From a virus (lineage: Duplodnaviria > Caudoviricetes), in IMG/VR virus record IMGVR_UViG_3300037851_000185, positions 1 through 34,063 of that record: 34,063 nucleotides of DNA; one strand, 5' to 3'. A program made the translations under genes and the position numbers. The notes beneath the pieces are model-generated. The model did not search any database, was not told the origin of the DNA, and saw only the letters and a program-made list of their open reading frames with translations. Shown one piece after another: positions 11,383 to 30,903 of this stretch (positions within the stretch are counted from its first letter, which is position 1; each line of letters starts with the position of its first letter).

Positions 11383-12156
11383 CTAGCGCGAAGAAATATC
11401 CCCGACCACCCCAACTTCACCGTAGCTGCTGCCCCAAATCTCCAACCCCTGCCTCGCGAACCAGAGCGCCATGACGCCGTCGGTCGTAGCTGCAAGAGGG
11501 TGGTTGCGTAGCTCATAGTCGAGCCGTGCCCAGTGTCCTCTCGGAGCAGGATCATCGGGAGTCGCGCCTTCCCACTCCGAAAGTGGGAAGACCCAGGCGT
11601 TGTTCTTGAACTCAGTTTGGAGAACCGGGAGTCCCTTCTCAGGGTCGAACTTCAGCCCTCCGGTCGTGGTGGTCGGCTCCACCTTCATCCACCAAGGGAA
11701 CCGCGCTGGGAACGCCTGAGCCCACTCGATGAGGGCAGCCTGGTACCCGTTGTCCTCGACCATGAACACGGTCGGATTGAAGAGTGAGTTGACGGTGTTG
11801 ATCTGTTCGCACGTCTCGTTCGACTTCCACTTCCCGTACCGGACGTCGCAGACGTGCCTCCTCCGGTTAGGTCCGAGAGCGACGGTCACGATCACGTTTC
11901 CGGGTCGCTTCTTCGAGGAGAGGTCTACACCAGAGACCTTGATCCAATTCGAGCGTTGGATCTCTCCGATGGAGACACCGGGAACTCGGCACTTCTCGTA
12001 ATCGGGGAAACTGATCTCATCGTCCGAGAAAGCACGTAACCGGAAGCCACGCTCAAACGATCGAGGTTCGGTTTCAGACCGCTTCCTGAGCGAGCCTTCG
12101 TTCCACTTCGGAGAGAACAACGGTATCGGCCTAAGCCGAGTCGGAACACTCATCAC
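11383..12156 (-). CDS. terL: terminase large subunit, C-terminal RNase H-like nuclease half
   Basis: PLFSPKW linker, SGVDLS, VEDNGYQAAL, HP..TTDGVMALWFA; own SD-like GGATAGGTG. Confidence 0.8.
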   Translation of the reverse strand: MMSVPTRLRPIPLFSPKWNEGSLRKRSETEPRSFERGFRLRAFSDDEISFPDYEKCRVPGVSIGEIQRSNWIKVSGVDLSSKKRPGNVIVTVALGPNRRRHVCDVRYGKWKSNETCEQINTVNSLFNPTVFMVEDNGYQAALIEWAQAFPARFPWWMKVEPTTTTGGLKFDPEKGLPVLQTEFKNNAWVFPLSEWEGATPDDPAPRGHWARLDYELRNHPLAATTDGVMALWFARQGLEIWGSSYGEVGVVGDISSR

Positions 12157-13995: not shown

Positions 13996-14213
13996 AGGTC
14001 CACGACCAGACTTTCAAGCTCTCGATACACCGCTCTCGCTTCTTTCACATACGGGAAGCCTGGCTCCTCGCCCGACTTGAGGAACGTCCGCAGCACCGTA
14101 GCGTCACCGTCGTTCCGCACCAGGATGGCTCTCGGTGGATAGTCAGATTCGACTTCCACCTCTTTGTAGAAGACTCCTGCTTCAGTTTCCAATTTGACCT
14201 TGTAGTTGATCAT
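13992..14213 (-). CDS. small hypothetical protein
   Basis: 73 aa, fits gene tiling. Confidence 0.55.
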   Translation of the reverse strand: MINYKVKLETEAGVFYKEVEVESDYPPRAILVRNDGDATVLRTFLKSGEEPGFPYVKEARAVYRELESLVVDL

Positions 14214-14562
14214 CTTCAGTCGGCTCCATAGTGGATGTCTGTGAAAAGGTCGAGCCAGGGATCATCGTCGTCCACGTCTCACAAGAAAACCAAGGCGAGG
14301 TACACCAGACCACCTCGAACCCTGCTTGCCGGATGACGTGAACTCCATTGAGCGCACCTGGGAGGACCGGAAGCTCCCTCCAGAAAGAAGGGTGCCCGAG
14401 GATCTGTTCGGCGTCTTTCTTCCCCCGTTCGCCGAGGAACGAGAACACGCCCCAGTTGGTTATGTCGTGGGATGACAATGAGGAGTTCAAGCGATTCAGA
14501 AGGTGCCCGGTGAAATCGGCAACCACACCATCCACACCGAGGATGACTGTCTTATTCGGCAT
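14182..14562 (-). pseudogene. degenerate HAD-family 5'(3')-deoxyribonucleotidase
   Basis: ILGVDGVVADF (first Asp of DxDG replaced by Gly), FWRELPVLPGA, TSP; C-terminal K and DD motifs missing in frame. Confidence 0.65.
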
Positions 14563-14983
14563 TGAACATCTCCAACGAGAGCGGCTCCAGCCCTCTCGCC
14601 CGCCGAATCTCGTCGATCTCCGGGACCGAGAACGCACCCGTCAACGTCTCCCCTGCGTGCCGAATCCGACCCTCAAGTTCACGCAACCGCAACACCCAAC
14701 GGTCGTGGTCTCGCCTGAGCCTCAACACGTCTTCGTAGGCAGGACTCCAACCATACGTCCCCTGATGGGCAATCTGCTCGGGAGCAATGTGTCCGAGCGC
14801 AACGACCGTAATACCATCCAACTGAGTCCTGAGTTGTTCGACGCACTTCCGCTCTTTCTCGACCAACTTCCACAAGTCCTCAACGATCCGATTCGCAGTC
14901 ACGTCGTCAAACACCCTGTCTCCTGCCATCGTGGCAGAAGCCTCGCCGACCAGCTCTCCGATTCGTCGCTTCAAGTCTTCCAT
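14552..14983 (-). CDS. hypothetical protein
   Basis: ATG 14983 with SD GAGGAGG; coiled-coil composition. Confidence 0.6.
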   Translation of the reverse strand: MEDLKRRIGELVGEASATMAGDRVFDDVTANRIVEDLWKLVEKERKCVEQLRTQLDGITVVALGHIAPEQIAHQGTYGWSPAYEDVLRLRRDHDRWVLRLRELEGRIRHAGETLTGAFSVPEIDEIRRARGLEPLSLEMFNAE

Positions 14984-17407: not shown

Positions 17408-18490
17408 TCAGGATTCGCCGATTCGTGTAGCGGGATACCGATTACGAATCACCTGAGCAAAGAAGGAGCCCTTCGAGGTCGAGGCCTGGAACGCGGCGTG
17501 GACGTCTGACGGAACGCCTTTGTAAGCGTACCTGGACCCCGACCGGAACATGACCTCCAACGCCTCTGCATTCGGGTCGTAGACGATCTCCCTGACGTTC
17601 GTGGAATCTTCCACGACCAACCTCGCGAGCGCCAAGGAAGGCCCTCTGATTGCGCTAGGGATCGGATAGCCATCCGGTGCGTTGTAGACCTCCTGCTCGA
17701 CTCGCTTGAAGTCCTCGGAGATCCATTGGCGGAGTACACACCATGCCGGTCGGTTGAGGATGACGTGAGTGAAGTCGGCTTGATGCCAAGGCGTCCCAAT
17801 GAACAGCACTCGTCCCGACGGCTCCAAGCGGTGCATCCAGACGTTATCGATGTTGTCGATGATCTTTTGCCGTAGGGCTGGCTCGTCGATCGCGTTGCGC
17901 TGGTCCACGACGTCGTCAAATACGAGGAGGTCTGCACGACCACCTGTACCTGCGGAGAGGACGCCTGCTGCCTGAATGGAGGGATCGATGGAGAAGCCGG
18001 GTCGGTCGAGGAATACTTCGTGTTGGGTCCACTTGCTCTGGATCTTGGCCTTGGACGCCTTCTGATTGGAGACCGGACGGACGCCGGGGAAGACGGCTCT
18101 GTAGCGTGCAGAGGAGATCATGGCCGAGATGCCCATGACGCGCTCCATCGCCTTCTGATCGTTCTGGCAGACGATCTTCGTTCGGGCGTTCACGTCCTGC
18201 CCGATCTCAAACGCCGTCCGTCCAATGGTCATCTGGCTCGTCTTCCCGTGGCCGAACGGAGCCAGGATTGCCGGGATCCGACCAACCTTCCAGCACCACT
18301 CCGCATGGAGGTGCCAGAGTCGGTGGATCGTGGCCTGTTTGAGAGAGAAGCCTTCTTCGTCTCGCATGACGAATTCAACGAAAGGGTGGAACGAGGTACG
18401 GCACTCCTCGTACTTCGACCTGAGCGCAGCAGACGCAGCGACCCCGAGGTCGCCGTAGCGAGCCTCTTCAACTGAACGAGCGTTGACCAC
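17408..18490 (-). CDS. terL: terminase large subunit, N-terminal ATPase half, with in-frame C-terminal KTSC domain
   Basis: Walker A APFGHGKT, GGRADLLVFDD Walker B, GTPWHQAD coupling motif; last ~70 aa STNVREIVYD..LEVMFRSGSRYAY.GVP..SKGSFF..IRNRY match KTSC. Confidence 0.88.
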   Translation of the reverse strand: MVNARSVEEARYGDLGVAASAALRSKYEECRTSFHPFVEFVMRDEEGFSLKQATIHRLWHLHAEWCWKVGRIPAILAPFGHGKTSQMTIGRTAFEIGQDVNARTKIVCQNDQKAMERVMGISAMISSARYRAVFPGVRPVSNQKASKAKIQSKWTQHEVFLDRPGFSIDPSIQAAGVLSAGTGGRADLLVFDDVVDQRNAIDEPALRQKIIDNIDNVWMHRLEPSGRVLFIGTPWHQADFTHVILNRPAWCVLRQWISEDFKRVEQEVYNAPDGYPIPSAIRGPSLALARLVVEDSTNVREIVYDPNAEALEVMFRSGSRYAYKGVPSDVHAAFQASTSKGSFFAQVIRNRYPATRIGES

Positions 18491-21825: not shown

Positions 21826-22118
21826 CAGTACACCCTCGCCCTTCCACGCAGCACTCGCTCGTCCTCTTCCAACCCAAACAGGGTCGAGACGTAGAGGCGT
21901 AGCTCTCCCACGTAGGCTTCGCAGTTCAGGCAACCCGCTTCCGCCTGGTAGTAGTCGTGTCCGCCGATTCGCTTCTTCGCTCCTCCAACTCGCAGAGGCA
22001 CCTTACAGTGCGGACAGAGCGTACCGGGCACATCCACTCCACTCGCAGACGGTTCTGGGACCGAGAGCTTGATCACTTCGTCGTTCATCGTAATCGTCAG
22101 CTTCATATCTACCTCCAT
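21825..22118 (-). CDS. Zn-ribbon hypothetical protein
   Basis: CPHC and CLNC; likely start ATG 22106 after GGAGG. Confidence 0.6.
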   Translation of the reverse strand: MEVDMKLTITMNDEVIKLSVPEPSASGVDVPGTLCPHCKVPLRVGGAKKRIGGHDYYQAEAGCLNCEAYVGELRLYVSTLFGLEEDERVLRGRARVY

Positions 22119-22120
22119 TC

Positions 22121-22555
22121 CTAGAACTCAGGAGAGCTGTAGGACGCTCGAACTCCAAAGCACACAATCTGGCGGGTCCGCTTGCCACCAACGAAGTAAA
22201 GGCCCTCTTGGCTTCGCGTAGCGACGTCGGTTCGCTCGGTCGAGACGAAGACGCCTCTTCCCCGCACATCATCCCGTTGTAGTAGGACGCGACGCCCACT
22301 CTCCGAAACGTGGACCACGGTCGCCGGGTATTGATCTGAACCGACATGGATCGTTGCAGGTGTCCCGACCACCGGAGCGACGTGTTGCGTCGGGAGGACG
22401 ACCTCCAGATCGAGGACGACCTCAAGCGTCTTGTCCCGAACCAACTCTCCACACACCGTCGGCAGTCGCCTCCCTGGACGAGCCTGGACGAGCGCACGAG
22501 TACCCTCCACCACCACCGGATAATCGTAGCCATTGTCCCAGTAGACGAGATTCAT
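22121..22555 (-). CDS. hypothetical phage protein
   Basis: PVVGTPATIHVGSDQYPATVV motif; ATGA overlap. Confidence 0.65.
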   Translation of the reverse strand: MNLVYWDNGYDYPVVVEGTRALVQARPGRRLPTVCGELVRDKTLEVVLDLEVVLPTQHVAPVVGTPATIHVGSDQYPATVVHVSESGRRVLLQRDDVRGRGVFVSTERTDVATRSQEGLYFVGGKRTRQIVCFGVRASYSSPEF

Positions 22556-22830
22556 GACTCACCTCGCTTCATCGAATCGAACTCTTCAGCGAGCCTACGT
22601 GCCATATTGGTGCGCTCGCGATCTTCGTGGATGAGAACCAACTCCGCTGCTGCCTCCTCCGGTGTATCGAACGAACGAGCCGAAACAGGCTCCCAGGGCC
22701 AAGCTCCGACCTTCTCGTCGATCTCCCAGCCGTCTGTGTACCGCAGATGCGGTAGTAAGCCCGACCCGCTACAACGACGTAGAAGTGAACGGTCTGCCAG
22801 GAAGGAGGCTCCATCTTGGTGAACAACCAC
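22552..22830 (-). CDS. small hypothetical protein
   Basis: Stop coupled to next start; start uncertain. Confidence 0.4.
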   Translation of the reverse strand: MVVHQDGASFLADRSLLRRCSGSGLLPHLRYTDGWEIDEKVGAWPWEPVSARSFDTPEEAAAELVLIHEDRERTNMARRLAEEFDSMKRGES

Positions 22831-22852
22831 TTAGTTCCGAGATCAACTTTGA

Positions 22853-23269
22853 TCATACCGTCCTCCGTTCCTCGTGTTCGATGTAGTGCCGATCGACGAG
22901 CGCATTCGCGGCCTCTTCCGGGGACACGAACGGACCTTCAAGGTACGCTTCCCAGGCTCCTCCGAGTTCCTTCCGCTCAACCTTCCAGAACGACTCGTCG
23001 CCTACTCGCCTCACGAACCGATACTCGTCGAGGTCGTAAGAAGTGACGTATTCGACCAACGGGCGTCGTTCCACCTTCGCGTTGAACGACCAATCCGTGC
23101 CGAGATGCCCAACAATCGGCCGATGTCCTGTCTCGTCCGACTCCAACGCTCGTAAGAACACTGAAAGCTCGAACGTATTGAGCATGCAGATCGAACGGGC
23201 CACTGACGCTGGGAGCTTCGCTCTCAGAATCTCCTCCATCCGATCTAGCATCCAAGTCTTCTCGCTCAT
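22853..23269 (-). CDS. hypothetical protein
   Basis: ATG 23269 with SD GGAGG. Confidence 0.6.
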   Translation of the reverse strand: MSEKTWMLDRMEEILRAKLPASVARSICMLNTFELSVFLRALESDETGHRPIVGHLGTDWSFNAKVERRPLVEYVTSYDLDEYRFVRRVGDESFWKVERKELGGAWEAYLEGPFVSPEEAANALVDRHYIEHEERRTV

Positions 23270-23287
23270 GTATCCTCCCGTGGAACG

Positions 23288-23343
23288 TAGAGAGGGGGAG
23301 CCAAGACCGAGGAGCATCCCTCAGCCCTGACTCCCCCTCTCTA
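23288..23343 (-). promoter_or_regulatory. 26-bp intergenic RNA hairpin (possible RNase III-type processing site)
   Basis: 13-bp perfect inverted repeat extended by 13 more pairs; all five non-Watson-Crick pairs are G-U on the minus strand; 4-nt loop. Confidence 0.7.
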
Positions 23344-23353
23344 ATCGATTAGA
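23340..23353. repeat. palindrome copy 6
   Basis: TCTAATCGATTAGA supplying the TAA stop of the DUF932-like gene. Confidence 0.85.
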
Positions 23354-24525
23354 ACGCCGTGACAGTCAGGAGCTTGCCCGCTGCTCGGTCGAGCGCGACT
23401 CGTTCATCCGCGTAGGAAATCTTCTGGGACAGCTCCGTCAGCGAATTGCTCACAGCCCAGACCGTCCTCGGGTCTCCGTAGTCGTCCACTCGGACCTGAG
23501 CGAGATCGATTGCCTCGCCCACGAGCTTCTGACTCAGGCCAATCTTGTGTTTTGCAGTCAGGCCGAAGACCGTGTCTAGGACGTCCCCCTTCGTCGCCCC
23601 GAGGACCAACTTCCGAGCCGACTCAATTCGCGCTTCGGTGTCAGAGACGGACGAATCCGCGTAGCGACGCAGCTCGATGGAGAGGTTCTGGAACGCGCGA
23701 GAGTTCGCCGTTCCAACGTGGCGCACACGAATCTCTTGAACGCCCTTCGCTCCCCAGACGATGTGGTTCCCACACACCGACTTGTAGAGGTAGGACATGA
23801 ACCCGAACGCCGAAGCTCCGACCTCGGAGTTCCAGCAGAAGAACCCACGACGAAGTCCGTCCTCGGACCCGTCCTCGATTCGCCGGTCTTCATTGACGAG
23901 GAAGCAGAACATATCGTGGTCAGAGACGTAGACGCCCGCTGGGGCAATCATGTCTCCGACCTGGACCGAGAGCCCTCCGAGTGAACGAGGGGAGCGGAGG
24001 ACATCCGCCTGAGTCGCTGGGCGCGCACGAGGATCGTCTACGTTAGCTGGACGGGCAGGAGGCAGACGCCACCCACCCCCCCAGGTCTGCGAGTCTCTCC
24101 AGGACGTCTGCGTTCCAGATGCGCGAATACCGCGAAGAAGTGATCGACCGAAGGAGGATGTCCCCGTTCCGGTGGAACAGCAGGTTCGCGGGTTCGTCTC
24201 CGTTCGACTCCCGTGCCTTCATCCCGTAGTTGAGATTCTGCGCAGCGAGCGTCGCTGGCAGTCCACGCAAGTACCCAGCAGGCGCTCCTGCTAGACTGCT
24301 CAACTGGCCGAAGGCCCAGTGTGTGAGCTTCGCAGGGATGCCAGAGCGACCAACGAGGTGAACGTCCTCGCCTTGCGCCTCCACCCGAAGGTCGCCGTAA
24401 TGTCCCGGCTTCTCGACGGCGACTGAGCGATAGGCGTCAGACGCAGCGTGGGCTTCTTGCACAGTCCAGAAGCGTTCGTCGTCTGGGCGAATTGACCACT
24501 GCTTGTGTGCTTTGAAGAGTTCCAT
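23349..24525 (-). pseudogene. DUF932-family protein split by a +1 frameshift in a G7 run
   Basis: RPDDERF, THWAFGQL, APAGYL, SRYSRIWN in ORF 24043-24525; removing one G at 24076-24082 gives GWRLPPARP..VGDMIAPAGVYVSDHDMF..RGFFCWNSEVG..VCGNHIVWG continuous to 23349. Confidence 0.8.
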
Positions 24526-24527
24526 AA

Positions 24528-24704
24528 TTAGCGAACCTCCTCTTCCACGAGGTCCGTCGCCCAGACCTTCAGTACTTCGCCGTCGATGGAGACGAGCGCG
24601 TACCAGCCTGACTCGCCCTTAGAGATGGAAGCCAAGCGGAGTCCGTCCTTCGCCAGTTCCGCGTTTATCTGAGCGTCCTTCGCCGCTTTCGTAGTTTCGT
24701 TCAT
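24528..24704 (-). CDS. small hypothetical protein (58 aa, below ORF-track cutoff)
   Basis: ATG with SD GGAG; MNETTKAAKDAQINAELAKDGLRL...; TAA two bases before the DUF932 ATG. Confidence 0.55.
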   Translation of the reverse strand: MNETTKAAKDAQINAELAKDGLRLASISKGESGWYALVSIDGEVLKVWATDLVEEEVR

Positions 24705-24824
24705 ACAATCTCCACCCCCGACCGTGGCCTAAGCCGACTGTGGGGGTCTTTAGTGGGGCGTCGTGCCCAGGAGAAGGTTAATAGAACGAAAGGACCGAGA
24801 AAAGCGGAATCGAAAGCGCCCGAA

Positions 24825-25364
24825 TCACCTGGGAAGGATGCGTCTTACAGCCAGCGCAACGTCGGAAGGGGTCTCTCGGGACACGTCGATGGTGGTTGTC
24901 TTTTCCCAAACGGGTAACTCCACGAACCGCTCGGACTTCGTCCTCCGTCCACGGACCCATGTGGCGTTCTGTAGCTCTGACCCAATCGACGCAGCTCGCT
25001 TCTGGCGGCGACTCTCCGCGATCGATCTCTCTGCCTTCAGCAAGACGCAGAACTTCCGCACCGAAGAAGGGGACATCTCAATCGCACCCGCGTAGGCAAA
25101 GCGGTCTCCGTCGAGGAACGTCAGTGGGTACTTCGGGGCGAGGATCGTCTTCCAGACTTCGATTGCGGCGCTGACTCCGTTGTACGGGATCGTGTCTGCT
25201 CCGTCGAACGCACCACCTGTGTAGTGTCCTGCTGCGAGCGCCATGCCCATCGTCCACTTGGGGCTTCGATATAGACGACAGGAAGAGAGCGGACCCAGGA
25301 ACTCTTTGACGACTGATGTCTTCCCGACACCGGGCTCACCGACGACCCAGACGACCACATTCAT
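24825..25364 (-). CDS. P-loop nucleotide/DNA kinase of base-modification clusters
   Basis: GEPGVGKT, GHY..GAFDGADTI, LDGDRF, QNATWVRGRRTK; ATGA overlap at 25364. Confidence 0.8.
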   Translation of the reverse strand: MNVVVWVVGEPGVGKTSVVKEFLGPLSSCRLYRSPKWTMGMALAAGHYTGGAFDGADTIPYNGVSAAIEVWKTILAPKYPLTFLDGDRFAYAGAIEMSPSSVRKFCVLLKAERSIAESRRQKRAASIGSELQNATWVRGRRTKSERFVELPVWEKTTTIDVSRETPSDVALAVRRILPR

Positions 25365-26230
25365 CGTCGTCTCCAGGCCAACTCGGCGACCTCGGCAGCG
25401 AGCATCGGACCACACTGTACTCCGCTCTTGTAGAGCGAGCGCACCAACACGACGCCTTCCATTGGCTCAAAGTAGAGGCTCTCTCCAAATGCCTTCTTCA
25501 TGCTCAAGCGAGGCTTCGGCCTCCAACCCTGTATCAACTCGACATTTCCAACTCGCTCCAACTCGATCCCGTTCAAGTTCGCAGCTTCCACGAACTCGTT
25601 GATCTTCTGCTCTGCCCGCTGATCCTGCTCGATTGGATGCTTCTGAAGGAGTGTGTCAGATCCCGCCAACCAGAGCTGCCAATTCCAAGGACACGGGTAA
25701 AGATACAACCCACCAGCAACCCAATCGACCGGGCGACGCGGATGAACAAAGTGGTAACTTGGTCTCGGAGTCTCCTTCACGTTGAGCGAAACGAGAGACC
25801 TCCAACCCCAAACCGGAATCGGATTGAATGGTTCAACCTCCATCACTCCACGCGCACGAATTCGCAGCTTCGCTGGAACCTCTTGTGGGACTCGATGGGG
25901 AGCGTACAGCTCACGGACCCAACGCACATACCCAGGAACGTCCATAATCCAACTCGGTCGCTCGTCTCTGACTCCACGAGTGATGTGAATTGTCGGCTCG
26001 ATCCACCTCCACTTCCCATCTGCGCTTTCAAGTAGCCCGACCCAGTTCCTATAGCCCTTCGCAGCAAGTTCGTAAGAGCTGTCGTCCTGCGGAAGAATCG
26101 CCCCAGTCGAAGCCATCCATGCAGTGTACGGAGAGTCCACGTCGGACCACGTGAACTCGATCCCCCGCTTATCCAACGCCTGAAGGATGAACGCACCAAG
26201 CAACCCACAACCCGTGACGTGAACGCTCAT
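25361..26230 (-). CDS. FAD-dependent oxidoreductase (glycine oxidase/DAO-like)
   Basis: VHVTGCGLLG Rossmann motif, AWMASTG, QGWRP, YKSG....P..A. Confidence 0.8.
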   Translation of the reverse strand: MSVHVTGCGLLGAFILQALDKRGIEFTWSDVDSPYTAWMASTGAILPQDDSSYELAAKGYRNWVGLLESADGKWRWIEPTIHITRGVRDERPSWIMDVPGYVRWVRELYAPHRVPQEVPAKLRIRARGVMEVEPFNPIPVWGWRSLVSLNVKETPRPSYHFVHPRRPVDWVAGGLYLYPCPWNWQLWLAGSDTLLQKHPIEQDQRAEQKINEFVEAANLNGIELERVGNVELIQGWRPKPRLSMKKAFGESLYFEPMEGVVLVRSLYKSGVQCGPMLAAEVAELAWRRR

Positions 26231-27102
26231 ACAAGCTCTCCTCGATCCACGAACGCCCTCTTCCGATCCTTACGAACCCCAGACCACCCACTCAACTCGC
26301 CAAGGTAGCGAGGCGCAAACACGGCCTTCCGAGCGGCCCAAAACACTTCGGAAGAACCAGACGACTCTAGCTTCGTCTGCTGATCGTCGATGTCGTGTCC
26401 AACGTAGTACCTGCCGTGTGTGAGGCTATTGTAGTCGCAAAGACACGTCTCAAGTTGGTCGAGTCCACTGAAGGCCACGCCACGCTTCCGCGTCTCGGCG
26501 AGAAGTTCCTTCTGGAGTCCAACGTCCCGAGCGCATCGCTTCCAGTTCTCTCCCGTGAGAGTCACCATTCCGGGGATCGGTCCTGCGCTCTCTCCGCCGC
26601 CACCGACCCCAATGTCGTCTGCCGTGATCGCGTATCCGTGGACGTTCTTAAGGAGATCGGCCCACTTGTAGCTCGACCAATGTCCGCCGTAGGGAATGGA
26701 TTGGAACGAGGATCGAACGCTCCTCCAACCTCGCTCTCCACCCTCTCCGACACACACACGAACCCATGCGCTCAGGCTTCGGTGCGGACGGAACACTGCC
26801 TCATACATGGCGTTGACGTGGACTTGCGCGAGGTCGTTCCCACGGAAGGCGCGGCGTTCGGTCCCGGTCGGAAGACGAATCGTGTCCAATCTGGCTGGCG
26901 ACGGGTAACGCTTCCACGCCAACTCGGCAGATCCGACGTTGTACCAAGTGACGTATAAGAACGTCCGCCAAAGCGCAGTCTCAAGGTCCACTTCCTCTTT
27001 CGCGTAGACCTCGCGGAGAACCGGATACATCGGGTCAATGTCACCCGACGAAAGCTGACGCTTTGAAAACTCAACGAAGTGTCTGAGGTGATTCTCGTTC
27101 AT
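26227..27102 (-). CDS. amino acid:DNA transferase (aGPT-Pplase2/ADDT family)
   Basis: GDIDPMY, PTGTERRAFRG, G.WSSYKWADLL, QLETCLCDY....GRYYVGHDID. Confidence 0.8.
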   Translation of the reverse strand: MNENHLRHFVEFSKRQLSSGDIDPMYPVLREVYAKEEVDLETALWRTFLYVTWYNVGSAELAWKRYPSPARLDTIRLPTGTERRAFRGNDLAQVHVNAMYEAVFRPHRSLSAWVRVCVGEGGERGWRSVRSSFQSIPYGGHWSSYKWADLLKNVHGYAITADDIGVGGGGESAGPIPGMVTLTGENWKRCARDVGLQKELLAETRKRGVAFSGLDQLETCLCDYNSLTHGRYYVGHDIDDQQTKLESSGSSEVFWAARKAVFAPRYLGELSGWSGVRKDRKRAFVDRGELV

Positions 27103-27518
27103 CGGACCTTCACATAGATCGCCATCGCGTGCCCGTCTTTGGCGTGAACCTCGCCCTTGAACGAGAACCCAAGGCGCTCATAGAACGACCGTGCCTTGTT
27201 GGTCGAATTCGTCTTCAGAGTCATCGGGAAGCCGATGTACTCGACCAACCGACGACCAAGCCCTCTGCCCCTAGCGGAAGAACTGACCGCTATCTCGTAG
27301 AGCACCCGAACCCCGTCCCTCTGACGAATCCGGTAGTGGGCGAACGCGACTTCCCGAATCCCAATGAAGATGTCGTTCTCGGCCTTACCGTTTACCCATC
27401 TCCAAACAACCGCCTTCCCGAACGAACCAAGCTCTACCTTGTTCTCGTCGAACAACCGGACGATCCAACCCTGGTCGCTCTCGTCCAGTCGGACAATCTC
27501 ACCTGGGCTTGTGTCCAC
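27099..27518 (-). CDS. GNAT acetyltransferase
   Basis: LYEIAV...RGRGLGRRL, N.ARSFYERLGF. Confidence 0.9.
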   Translation of the reverse strand: MDTSPGEIVRLDESDQGWIVRLFDENKVELGSFGKAVVWRWVNGKAENDIFIGIREVAFAHYRIRQRDGVRVLYEIAVSSSARGRGLGRRLVEYIGFPMTLKTNSTNKARSFYERLGFSFKGEVHAKDGHAMAIYVKVR

Positions 27519-28335
27519 TCTGCGCTCTCACCTTCTCACGGGCAGTCTTGAGTCCACGGATGCGCTCCAACTCGTCCTTGGGCTCCAGGCAGTTGCACAT
27601 GAGCTTGAGCGCGTAATAGACGACCGTGTAGCGATACGCAGAGGGAGACTTCGGGCGGAAGTATTCGACCCCGTGCAACTCGCCCTGTCCGTCGAACAAG
27701 AACGCACGAGCACCCTCCGTCGAGAACGCGAGCCGATACTCGGGGAACACGAGATTCCCACCTTCCATGCCCCGACTGAACCCGAGCATCGAAGACCACG
27801 CGCCTTTGAAGTTCCCCGTGTCGTAATGGTAAGGCAGCGCGTTGTTCTTGTTACAGATCCCACTGGTGAACACCGAGCCAGGAATGACCCACCGATCCTT
27901 CACTCGCCGAAGCTGTTCCATGTGCTTCTCGAATCGCTTTGGATTCGTCTTCCTGAACCACTCACTCAACCGAGCAGCCTGCTCCGTGAAGATTCGATGC
28001 TCGTTCGGGAAGTCTCGGGACATCGAAGCAGCGTGGCAGAAGTCGGCACGACCCGGACGTCTGGGCATGAAGCCAAAGATGCGAGCCACATTCGGATCGT
28101 CTGAACCGAGTGGCTTCATCTTGCTGCCTCGGTTCGTCGTCGCGTACTCAAGACGATTGAGCGCACCGATGATGTCCGCGTAAGGCCAATTCACCTTCCG
28201 ATAGATGACCACTGGCTCGTCTCGCTCGTTCACGAGAACGCAATCATCGTCTATGAGTTCGTCGTAGTCGGCCTTCGTCAGCTGATCGAAAACCTTTCGA
28301 TTCGTGGTGTGCTTAGTTGCCAGCTTCCTCTTCAT
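27499..28335 (-). CDS. TET/JBP-like 2OG-Fe(II) oxygenase
   Basis: FTSGICNKN..LPYHYD.GN (HxD), GGNLVFPEY, LHGV, RYTVVYY. Confidence 0.85.
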   Translation of the reverse strand: MKRKLATKHTTNRKVFDQLTKADYDELIDDDCVLVNERDEPVVIYRKVNWPYADIIGALNRLEYATTNRGSKMKPLGSDDPNVARIFGFMPRRPGRADFCHAASMSRDFPNEHRIFTEQAARLSEWFRKTNPKRFEKHMEQLRRVKDRWVIPGSVFTSGICNKNNALPYHYDTGNFKGAWSSMLGFSRGMEGGNLVFPEYRLAFSTEGARAFLFDGQGELHGVEYFRPKSPSAYRYTVVYYALKLMCNCLEPKDELERIRGLKTAREKVRAQSGHKPR

Positions 28336-28972
28336 AGTGCCCCAGCAAAGCCAAGAACGCCCCAGTGTGGGTGTTGACGCCTTCTCGTTCCATCACCGCT
28401 TGGATTCGCGACATGACGGATTCGTACTCGTGAGCCTCAAAGTAGAGGACCACCTGCTTGATCTCGGCAGCCGCGTAAGTTTCGAGGTCGTCCTCGTAGC
28501 TCGCACCGACGACCAGTTCCTTCGTCGTTTCTTCGGCGACTGCCAGCATCTCGGCAACTTGGTCCTCGGACCAGCCCACGCCAGAGAGGCCATCCACATC
28601 GGAGAGTTCCTTCAGAATCTCGACGAGCTTCCCTTCGTCCCATCCACCCGTCTGTACGAGTCAGTTGTCGGCAAGTAGGTACGCTTCTGCCTCTCGGTCG
28701 TTCTCGAATGAGATGCCACGGATGACCGGAAGGAGCCACGACTTGCCCTTCTTCTTGACCCTATCGGGAGGATCGCTCCCCTCCGATTGCATCTTGAGAA
28801 GTGTCTCAAGGCGACCGTGGCCTGCAACCAATTGACCAGAGCGTTCGTCGATGAGGAGTGGTTGTATGAACCCGAACCGACGAACCGAGTCACCTAGCGT
28901 AGAGAGATCGTGCAACTTCGGGTTGCGAGGCCACGCCTTTACCTCTTCCAACGGAACGTAGTCGATACGCAT
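28313..28972 (-). pseudogene. ParB-like N-terminal-domain protein interrupted by an in-frame TGA
   Basis: PRNPKLH, FGFIQPLLID, LVAGHGRL, YLLADN-TGA-LVQTGGWDE; the two track ORFs share one frame. Confidence 0.75.
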
Positions 28973-29000
28973 CGCATCAGCCTTCCTTGAACCTTCTCCT

Positions 29001-29294
29001 TCACACCTTCAGATCGGTCGGAAGCCACCCAAGGACTACCAGGGCGTCCCGTAACACTCGGACCTCGTCTGAGTCCATCCCCGTTGTTTCGCCTCGCTCC
29101 AACATCCTCACCACGATTCGCTGGAGCACCTTCTTCTGAGCCTCGAACTTCGCACGCAAGTCTCGATTCTGAGACTTTTCTGCCACCTCGGGTAGTTTGA
29201 GTTCTTGACTTGAATGAACCGTTACGTCGTTCACAACACTCTCCGTACCAGGCAGCTCAAGCTGTCCGGGTAGTGACTTCATGCGCTTCGACAT
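29001..29294 (-). CDS. hypothetical protein
   Basis: 97 aa, GQLELP near N-terminus. Confidence 0.55.
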   Translation of the reverse strand: MSKRMKSLPGQLELPGTESVVNDVTVHSSQELKLPEVAEKSQNRDLRAKFEAQKKVLQRIVVRMLERGETTGMDSDEVRVLRDALVVLGWLPTDLKV

Positions 29295-30903
29295 GAATCC
29301 GCTGGGCAGCCTTCGGCTTCAACGCCTCGACCAAATATGGGTTGTGGGTAATGACGACGACCTTCCGGTCGTCTGCCAGTTCCACGAGGTAGTCGCCTAA
29401 CGCAGTCACGCCTTCCTCGTCGAGACCATCGAACACCTCGTCCAAGAACAGATCCCCTCTTACACCCGAAGCTCCCTCCGCAAGAGCCGACAAGCCGATG
29501 AGCATCGCAATATCGACTCTTCGGCGTTGCCCATCCGACGCAGCCTGGTATCCGAGACCTCCTCCTGCTCCGTTGATCTGCATCGAGATCGTCTCGACCG
29601 TGTTCCCTGACTTCTGCTCGGAGTACGGCTTCAGCTCCAACGAGACCTCTGGAGAGATCGTGGAGAGGACGCCGTTCGCAACGACCTCCAACCCGCTGAG
29701 TGCCTCGGCGAGAACCGCCGAACGAACTCCTCTCAGGCCAAGGACGAGCTGGGCGGCCTTCAGTTCCTCGACCTCGACCTCGCACTTTGCACGGTTCCGT
29801 TCGTGTTGTGAAAGATCCTTCTGGAGCTTCTGGATCTGATCCCGTGAATCGTCTGAAGCCTTGAGGAGACGATCCTTCAACCCACTACTCGCCTTGCTCT
29901 GCTGGATCTTCACCTTCAGAGTTGAAGCCTGCTTGAGCAATCTCTCCATCTCTTCGGCCTTCTTCTGAACGACTCCGTCGATCCGCTTCTTGGTGCTCTC
30001 GGATTCCTTGGCACCCTCTTCGGCCTTGAGCTTCGCGGCATCCACTCGCTTCTTGATCTTTGCGACGAACGTAGCTTCCAGTGGCCGTTCGCAGGTCGGG
30101 CAGTTCCCATTCTTGAACCGCTCTAATTCTCGCTCGGACGCAGACAACTCAGCTCTCGATTCGGCCAGTCGATGCACCACCTCATCACGTTCCGCTCTTG
30201 CCTCTCGCAACGACTTCTCGGCCTTGGCTCGCGACTTCTCGACGGAGTCCAACTCAGAGCTGTCCACCTCTGGCGCGCTCTCCTCTGCCTCTTGGAGCGA
30301 AGTCTCGGCCAACGTGAGTGCCTCTCGCTCTCGCTCCAGCGCAGAGGTGCAGCGTTCAATCTGCGAGATCGCCAAATTCAGTTCGGCTTCGGCCTTGCGC
30401 AAGTCCACTTTGCAGGCGGACAGAGCGTCGTCGAACTTGGACAATCCGAGGATCGCCTCAAGTAGCGCCTTCCGGTCTGAGTCTCGACCCGCTGAAAACT
30501 TCGCGGCATCTGCCTTGGTGAAGACGGCGCAACGCTTCCACACCTCATGGGAGGGGATGAGTTCAGACAGAGCCTCTTGTGCTTTCGCGGACGAAGGGTA
30601 CGTCGAGTTGTTGTGTTCGGTCTCGAACGCCAACACCGGAGAACCTTTCGCGGTCTTTGTACGAGTCGCGAACAGGCCCTCTTTTCCAATCGCCCAGGCT
30701 GAAACGTGACCCTTTGAATTGGCTCGCCAAGGGCTGCTCCCTCGGACGGTGTCTCCCCAGAACGCAGTCGAGATCATCTCGATGATGGAACTCTTCCCTT
30801 CACCGTTATTCCCAGTCACGAGCACGAGCCCGCTTCTGACAAGATCAAGGTCGAGGTCGTCGAACGCCATGAAGTTCGACGCTGCAAGACGGTAGACAAT
30901 CAA
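29257..30903 (-). CDS. sbcC: SbcC/Rad50/gp46-like SMC ATPase
   Basis: NFMAF, GNNGEGKS, CPTC zinc hook, SDGQRRR, FLDEVFDGLD, VITH; start reassigned to TTG 30903 (TTGA overlap). Confidence 0.92.
   Translation of the reverse strand: MIVYRLAASNFMAFDDLDLDLVRSGLVLVTGNNGEGKSSIIEMISTAFWGDTVRGSSPWRANSKGHVSAWAIGKEGLFATRTKTAKGSPVLAFETEHNNSTYPSSAKAQEALSELIPSHEVWKRCAVFTKADAAKFSAGRDSDRKALLEAILGLSKFDDALSACKVDLRKAEAELNLAISQIERCTSALEREREALTLAETSLQEAEESAPEVDSSELDSVEKSRAKAEKSLREARAERDEVVHRLAESRAELSASERELERFKNGNCPTCERPLEATFVAKIKKRVDAAKLKAEEGAKESESTKKRIDGVVQKKAEEMERLLKQASTLKVKIQQSKASSGLKDRLLKASDDSRDQIQKLQKDLSQHERNRAKCEVEVEELKAAQLVLGLRGVRSAVLAEALSGLEVVANGVLSTISPEVSLELKPYSEQKSGNTVETISMQINGAGGGLGYQAASDGQRRRVDIAMLIGLSALAEGASGVRGDLFLDEVFDGLDEEGVTALGDYLVELADDRKVVVITHNPYLVEALKPKAAQRIHVEAHEVTTRTA

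Follow-up and report, generated by a model that had tools for sequence, protein, structure and literature searches.

The DNA analyzed here, called the window throughout, is the whole of IMG/VR virus record IMGVR_UViG_3300037851_000185, a virus contig, linear and 34,063 bases long, with a CheckV completeness of 45%. Positions 24825..28972 hold six genes, all on the minus strand, that together appear to form a cassette for remodeling a DNA base. The first is a ParB-like gene (28313..28972), broken, with an N-terminal nucleotide-binding-type domain and a C-terminal domain, and assigned by PHROGs matches only (phrog_620, phrog_723). Then come a TET/JBP-family Fe(II)/2-oxoglutarate (2OG) oxygenase of 278 aa (27499..28335), recognized by Tet_JBP, phrog_6059 and fold, and predicted to hydroxylate the 5-methyl group of thymine; a GNAT acetyltransferase of 139 aa (27099..27518), found with Pfam and resembling gp48 of phage PaMx11; an amino acid:DNA transferase (ADDT/aGPT-Pplase2, PF18724) of 291 aa (26227..27102); a flavoenzyme of 289 aa (25361..26230) with the DAO/glycine-oxidase fold, a distant homologue of PaMx11 gp47; and a P-loop kinase (Ploopntkinase3 in Pfam) of 179 aa counted from its ATG (24825..25364), a predicted DNA kinase for 5-hydroxymethyluracil (5hmU).

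The genes overlap head to tail: ParB and TET by 23 nucleotides, TET and GNAT by 20, and the GNAT/ADDT, ADDT/flavoenzyme and flavoenzyme/kinase pairs each at an ATGA. An earlier note, made from the letters alone, had this layout right, and credited all six genes with intact motifs; Pfam and fold bear that out for the oxygenase, GNAT, ADDT, flavoenzyme and kinase, but the ParB-like gene is cut by a TGA at 28661-28663. In the hidden Markov model searches that the note called for, ADDT (PF18724, 2.6e-13), Ploopntkinase3 (9e-7) and GNAT (3.5e-11) score above cut-off; Tet_JBP (1.5e-5) and DAO (1e-4) score below it, and AlphaFold models and fold searches confirm both. A scan of 24400-29600 found no sigma-70-type promoter and no minus-strand terminator, and no RNA runs are listed among the public datasets that match the window. 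The GC content and the palindrome avoidance of the cassette match those of the remainder of the record, which suggests that it is a long resident of this genome.

Probably—we put the probability at about 0.6—the cassette modifies thymine after replication, with 5-acetylaminomethyl-uracil, the base of PaMx11, as the predicted end product, in a yield that may be low now that ParB is cut. The analysis itself establishes which genes are present, their folds and residues, how they co-occur, and the stop codon.

The cassette is genuine and turns up repeatedly. From IMG/VR we gathered 77 loci seeded on the ADDT and 11 on the flavoenzyme, with flanks of 6 kb or less, many of them incomplete, and built profiles from these seeds; the 88 loci fall into 71 clusters at 90% ADDT identity. 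A TET gene is present in 49 clusters and a thymidylate synthase in 11; none has both, and 11 have neither (Fisher p 3e-7). Because the two never occur together, they are probably alternative sources of 5hmU for the same downstream genes, and if they are alternative suppliers, the oxygenase would make 5hmU too, hence act on thymine. ParB accompanies TET in 44 of the 49 clusters and the synthase in none of the 11. All six genes occur together in 7 clusters, five without GNAT in 29, and GNAT is present in 10. The synthase profile, PF00303, has no match in five complete TET-type genomes (three of them with six genes), and matches all five synthase-type genomes used as controls.

Among cultured phages, the collection searched holds 15 records that match the ADDT, 107 that match the oxygenase and 8 that match the flavoenzyme; the ADDT and flavoenzyme matches are actinophages throughout. 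Apart from GNAT, which they lack, CaiB, Tonitrus and Phelemich have the whole set (ParB, oxygenase, ADDT, kinase, flavoenzyme); Kozie is without both ParB and GNAT. Seen from the oxygenase, the company is different. Among the best 80 of 551 loci of its group, which are those we used, 77 have ParB, 4 have ADDT and 1 has a C5 methyltransferase motif.

Some relatives deserve mention in their own right. One 327-kb genome (L044/L045, 9142-12852) has the six-gene cassette together with three ParB-like genes and two tandem oxygenase genes. Related ADDT loci (L097-L102) occur in Streptomyces, Microbispora, Nocardioidaceae, Acidimicrobiales and Anaerolineaceae assemblies, probably as prophages or phage contigs, and in L098-L102 the ADDT has ParB, TET and kinase neighbors. 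Short-insert oxygenases of the kind found here are mostly encoded as bare ParB-TET pairs (L103-L182); with 59 of 101 downstream open reading frames (ORFs) scanned, what directly follows the pair is, among 36 clusters, the terminase genes in 16 and a glycosyltransferase of the TET-associated kind in 8. Locus L110 pairs ParB-TET with a divergent ADDT that has Ala at the Lys248 position discussed below, and no kinase was detected within the stretch fetched.

The enzymes and the proposed route

The oxygenase matches phrog_6059 at 2e-31, and its AlphaFold model has a pLDDT (a per-residue confidence score) of 93.2. The earlier note had feared a grouping with 2OG enzymes that act on substrates other than nucleic acids. 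The top fold matches in the PDB are all TET-family—CcTet, NgTET1, TET2 and CMD1—with E-values of 2e-11 to 3e-8, against 1.6e-5 at best for AlkB-type and other 2OG enzymes, so that TET-type matches are better than AlkB types by about three orders of magnitude. The metal triad, H170, D172 and H221, and R235, the 2OG-binding Arg, are invariant in 31 aligned sequences. The protein thus has the attributes of the TET/JBP superfamily: the double-stranded beta-helix fold, HxD…H and the Arg. A helix (252-272) beyond the invariant C249 forms a C-terminal extension, which may be equivalent to that of the published clade C1 enzymes. The kinase retains the GxxGxGK P-loop and the G-x-D and E/D-G motifs (G14, K15, G55 and D57 are invariant in 76 rows), and with these family features is predicted to be a 5hmU DNA kinase.

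In a profile alignment the ADDT keeps D21, D23, E82, R84, W142, K146, E218 and C222; it thus joins the PF18724 domain to the catalytic C222 and the metal-binding E218, T219 and D23 of the family. Within the donor pocket, Tyr232, Glu82, Lys146, Asp23 and Asp237 are kept.

Searching PDB sequences with the flavoenzyme produced nothing useful. Its AlphaFold model (pLDDT 94.9) resembles DAO, glycine oxidase, IdaA, CmiS2, MnmC and PaMx11 gp47, and so has oxidases that cleave N-carboxymethyl groups among its neighbors; one of them, IdaA (Z 23.3, root-mean-square deviation 3.1, 263 aligned residues), is level with DAO. The profile alignment to gp47 is full length, with an HH probability of 96-97% at an identity of about 15-17%, and places R237 and K268 opposite the carboxylate-binding Arg242 and Lys268 that, with the fold, characterize the N-alpha-glycinyl-thymine oxidase. 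The GNAT is 39.5% identical to gp48 over 81 aa.

The route would run as follows. The oxygenase, normally activated by ParB, would hydroxylate thymine in DNA to 5hmU, and the kinase would phosphorylate this to 5-phosphomethyl-uracil. Cys222 of the ADDT would then attack C6, the phosphate would be lost, and an amino acid, most likely glycine, would be added through its alpha-nitrogen, yielding N-alpha-glycinyl-thymine. The flavoenzyme would cleave the N-C-alpha bond oxidatively to leave 5-aminomethyl-uracil, whose amine the gp48-like GNAT would acetylate. Each chemical step has been shown in other phages, and by analogy we infer from them the activities, the donor and the product proposed for the window proteins.

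The proposed route weighed

Several observations weigh against this route, and we gather them here. The main doubt, judged from alignment, concerns the donor. Lys248 of the YuA transferase binds the glycine carboxylate, and Lys248 and Tyr257, installed in a diamine transferase, turn it into a glycine transferase (PMC13458397). These two residues typify the glycine:DNA transferases M6 gp51, YuA gp10 and PaMx11 gp46; in the window, Asp223 occupies the Lys248 position, where Asp is invariant in 36 aligned sequences. We have accordingly refrained from filing the cassette as a glycine transferase system.

The donor might then be a basic amino acid, a diamine or some other amine, from which the flavoenzyme and GNAT would make a so far undescribed derivative of thymine. 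Together with the neighboring Asp237 and Asp239, the Asp that replaces Lys248 would give an acidic pocket resembling what diamine transfer requires; Asp-type ADDTs form a large clade of their own, apart from the characterized glycine and diamine enzymes (FastTree); and the flavoenzyme, too, belongs to a separate family (210 representatives at 50% clustering). We nonetheless think this unlikely. The other residues of the glycine pocket are kept, and any amino acid linked through its alpha-nitrogen should yield 5-aminomethyl-uracil on oxidation. Gene neighborhoods point the same way. We compared 75 distinct motifs of ADDTs: those of the Asp type occur with a flavoenzyme in 39 cases and with the M6-type pyridoxal-phosphate (PLP) enzyme and radical S-adenosylmethionine (SAM) enzyme in 10, never with both (3 more Asp-type motifs have radical SAM only); in 7 of the 75 the window's flavoenzyme subfamily lies next to ADDTs of the canonical Lys/Tyr glycine type, together with a thymidylate synthase. 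Both downstream modules act on the glycinyl-thymine route in characterized phages (PMC8989533). The window ADDT itself sits in a 20-row clade (FastTree) in which TET, synthase, flavoenzyme and PLP/radical SAM neighbors are mixed, so that M6-type and PaMx11-type modules alternate within one clade. Because Asp-type ADDTs pair with glycinyl-thymine modules, and the flavoenzyme subfamily also serves Lys/Tyr enzymes, the context favors glycine or a similar alpha-N-linked amino acid.

Asp-type ADDTs also adjoin thymidylate synthases (L024, L026, L031 and L047); a check of these synthases, with L030 taken alongside L026, for the Asn that we take to mark the dUMP type, on an Asn/Asp rule that we assume, worked at L031 only. 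Four further loci (L009, L010, L017 and L023) combine TET, kinase, Asp-type ADDT, PLP enzyme and radical SAM enzyme, and are predicted to follow a post-replicative version of the M6 aminoethyl-uracil route.

Further doubts attach to the last two steps. As a fold match to the flavoenzyme, gp47 ranks 22nd with Foldseek and beyond the top 50 with VIA, and BLAST between the two finds no match. In the profile alignment W51, with which gp47 stacks on the base, has no counterpart; for the rest of the base-flipping cage (Y180 and Q182) the region around 180 aligns poorly at 15-17% identity, in a profile alignment only. All 10 GNAT-bearing clusters hold the flavoenzyme, and at p 0.056 this link is not significant. 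GNATs are frequent in phages, and 29 clusters, as well as CaiB, Tonitrus and Phelemich, have the other five genes without one, so the substrate of this GNAT might instead be a protein or a metabolite, and the end product 5-aminomethyl-deoxyuridine, as predicted for the five-gene versions. We regard this as quite unlikely: the gene overlaps its cassette neighbors on both sides, and its product resembles gp48.

At the other end of the route, the starting base is at issue. Phage T-dioxygenases that have been tested oxidize 5-methylcytosine (5mC) as well, in vitro (PMC13229309). One of five complete TET-type genomes, with six cassette genes, has a C5 methyltransferase, about 35 kb from the cassette, and 55% of the genome of the window's own virus is absent from the record. 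The oxygenase might thus act on 5mC, or a dUMP hydroxymethylase encoded in the missing part might supply 5hmU. Within the window, as the earlier note stated, neither PF00303 nor PF00145 (C5 methyltransferase) has a match, in a record that is 45% complete. The mutual exclusion of TET and synthase (49 and 11 clusters, none with both), the absence of the synthase from complete relatives, the absence of a C5 methyltransferase from two of three complete six-gene genomes, and the presence of Asp-type ADDTs beside thymidylate synthases all make these possibilities very improbable, and thymine a much likelier substrate than 5mC.

Whether the oxygenase behaves like those that have been tested is less certain. 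A quick tree of 59 oxygenases places it in a 35-row actinophage group, separated from a 24-row NRG group with long inserts (SH-aLRT 100). The variable insert is 19 aa long in the window, 12-13 aa in its group and 26-51 aa in the NRG group. Published 5mYOX sequences that were tested, compared by eye outside the tree, all have the long-insert signature, and the YHYD, YHRD and YHFD motifs occur in none of the tested oxygenase sequences in the published material available (PMC13229309). By sequence, then, the enzyme appears to fall outside the tested type, in a group with short inserts, and since that group stands apart, thymine specificity and ParB dependence are extrapolated to it.

The last point against the route is ParB itself. 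The TGA at 28661-28663 leaves a 103-aa ORF (28661-28972) and a 115-aa remainder, which match consecutive parts of the same PHROGs (phrog_620 and phrog_723), end to end. It comes after a conserved ADN motif, at a position most often occupied by Arg (in 11 of 19 distinct ADN contexts, and in 38 of 84 aligned rows). In relatives ParB is one ORF; of 97 other ParB sequences linked to TET, just one is comparably short. Reassignment of TGA was considered and rejected: five cassette genes end in TGA, three of them within ATGA overlaps. The 103-aa product is present in both the JGI/IMG and the Logan assemblies, which may share reads; among Logan contigs aligned to 22000-30000 none spans the stop codon, and searching metagenome and viral contigs for a pattern that crosses it gave 0 matches.

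If the oxygenase depends on ParB, the pathway of this genome would be silenced or weakened by the stop codon, and we put the odds of a silent or weak pathway at about even. Such a defect would belong to this allele and is compatible with the thymine route. Deletion of its C-terminal domain, the part that is lost here, lowers the activity obtained with ParB176 to 2% (PMC13229309); the tail is rarely this short elsewhere, both assembly sources have the truncated product, and the window contains other broken genes, described below. Tempering this, ParB dependence is itself extrapolated to short-insert oxygenases, translation of the C-terminal half could resume at a GTG (28597), and neither the aligned contigs nor the two sources, if they share reads, settle the stop codon. 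Moreover the insert, 12 aa in 27 of 30 relatives, is 19 aa here, and insert swaps abolished ParB dependence in tested oxygenases (PMC13229309). The two closest relatives share a longer insert (21 and 17 aa), from which one might speculate that ParB independence is possible. The extreme form of the alternative set out above—a large Asp-pocket clade, present in cultured actinophages, that transfers something other than glycine and yields an undescribed thymine derivative wholly after replication, with an oxygenase that a lengthened insert may have freed from a now decaying ParB—strikes us as doubtful. The best reading remains a post-replicative acetylaminomethyl-pyrimidine built on thymine, much as the earlier note proposed. 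Its suggestion of a possible new base fares less well: the most likely product is the known 5-acetylaminomethyl-deoxyuridine (5-AcNmdU), and a new base is unlikely.

Other features of the window

Elsewhere the window encodes capsid, scaffold, portal, terminase, SbcCD-like and RecA-like genes. The public run with the best match to it is a freshwater metagenome, which may be its source. Palindromes of 6 bp are avoided throughout (1-34063), with 199 observed against 488 expected. Twelve that are expected at least 5 times are absent (CTCGAG 0/23, GTCGAC 0/23.5 and GAGCTC 0/15 among them), compared with 0 of 1574 non-palindromic pairs. Such avoidance suggests that the host has many Type II restriction systems. 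It might be taken to speak against a modified genome; we rejected this argument, since over 30 kb of PaMx11 the ratio is similar (0.49, versus 0.41 here). TC/GA is in excess, at 1.51.

A DUF932/phrog_1362 gene (23349-24525, minus strand) is divided into two ORFs by what looks like a frameshift close to a homopolymer of 7 bases (24076-24082); a Logan contig reads this region identically, with no gaps. The large terminase subunit is apparently split into two parts (17408-18490 and 11383-12156, minus strand) that match consecutive parts of phrog_38, the ATPase part being fused to a C-terminal KTSC domain and the nuclease part lying about 5 kb downstream. The ORF at 14182-14637 (minus strand) resembles, by eye, what we take to be a HAD-type 5'-nucleotidase, with its first motif altered, and seems to have a frameshift or deletion close to its end.

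Comparison with known systems

Pathways of this kind, and the core idea, are already published. Lee et al. (2022) reconstituted the PaMx11 route to 5-AcNmdU, and proposed that TET_JBP, which replaces dUMP hydroxymethylase in some contigs, makes 5hmU in DNA; their Fig. 2 sequences 22-25 have it beside kinase and ADDT, by the same logic (PMC8989533). O'Toole et al. (2026) demonstrated T-dioxygenase activity and ParB dependence for phage enzymes, neighbored by P-loop kinases along with amino acid:DNA transferases (AADTs); in their mined contigs AADTs reach 13-16% and GNATs about 7% (PMC13229309). The earlier note's premise that characterized phage TETs only oxidize 5mC is thus outdated. The six-gene set may already be drawn in Lee Fig. 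2 or O'Toole Fig. 3. A genome announcement terms the Tonitrus genes a thymine hypermodification system (PMC11955845), and the first five genes of cluster DR phages have been noted as nucleotide-modification genes (PMC13355239). In the literature searched we found no complete TET-initiated amino-acid hypermodification route that had been reconstituted or measured in virion DNA, and no nucleoside analysis of CaiB, Wooper, Tonitrus, Phelemich or Kozie DNA.

With clade C1 T-dioxygenases the window shares a ParB gene that stands directly upstream of the gene for a TET/JBP enzyme bearing a C-terminal helical extension, an adjoining P-loop kinase and AADT, and no adjacent C5 methyltransferase (PMC13229309). 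It differs from the tested members in its short insert, its other motif and its broken ParB. Clade C1 also has an adjacent ParB with both domains; here both are encoded yet split by the TGA, and with its features absent or ambiguous we avoid that label. The main text of the clade C1 paper names GATases, kinases and AADTs as neighbors, and a term search of its 12 supplements gave neither FAD nor DAO.

Gordonia cluster DR phages (CaiB, Wooper and others), Tonitrus (Rhodococcus), Phelemich (Mycobacterium) and Kozie (Microbacterium) share the oxygenase group (34-35% identity), an Asp-type ADDT (34-35% identity) and the kinase; the window's flavoenzyme subfamily also includes CaiB gp5 and Tonitrus gp8 (27-28% identity). 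They differ in lacking GNAT and in gene order. With the oxygenase group and the Asp-type transferase shared by cultured Gordonia, Microbacterium and M. smegmatis phages, the virion DNA of these actinophages should hold 5-aminomethyl-deoxyuridine if glycine is the donor, and otherwise a new base. A cassette that requires no changes to the nucleotide pool would, if this is true, be a portable means of placing amine handles on ordinary DNA.

Closest in overall plan is PaMx11, whose gp46-gp49 likewise form one cluster of ADDT, DAO-fold flavoenzyme, GNAT and P-loop kinase (PMC8989533, PMC11472151), with the catalytic Cys and Glu of the ADDT and gp47 R242 and K268 in common. In PaMx11 a thymidylate-synthase homologue supplies 5hmU, where in the window ParB and the oxygenase would; neither the record, at 45% completeness, nor any of three complete relatives with six genes has a PaMx11-type dUMP hydroxymethylase, and the window has no helical gene of the gp50 type. 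The cassette would, by this comparison, work as the PaMx11 pathway does, except that an oxygenase of the published kind forms its front end. What is new lies at the subfamily level: an Asp-type ADDT (about 27% identical to that of PaMx11 over 171 aa, with Lys248 changed to Asp), a short-insert oxygenase, and a divergent flavoenzyme in a subfamily separate from gp47. Given these differences, the base made could differ from that of PaMx11.

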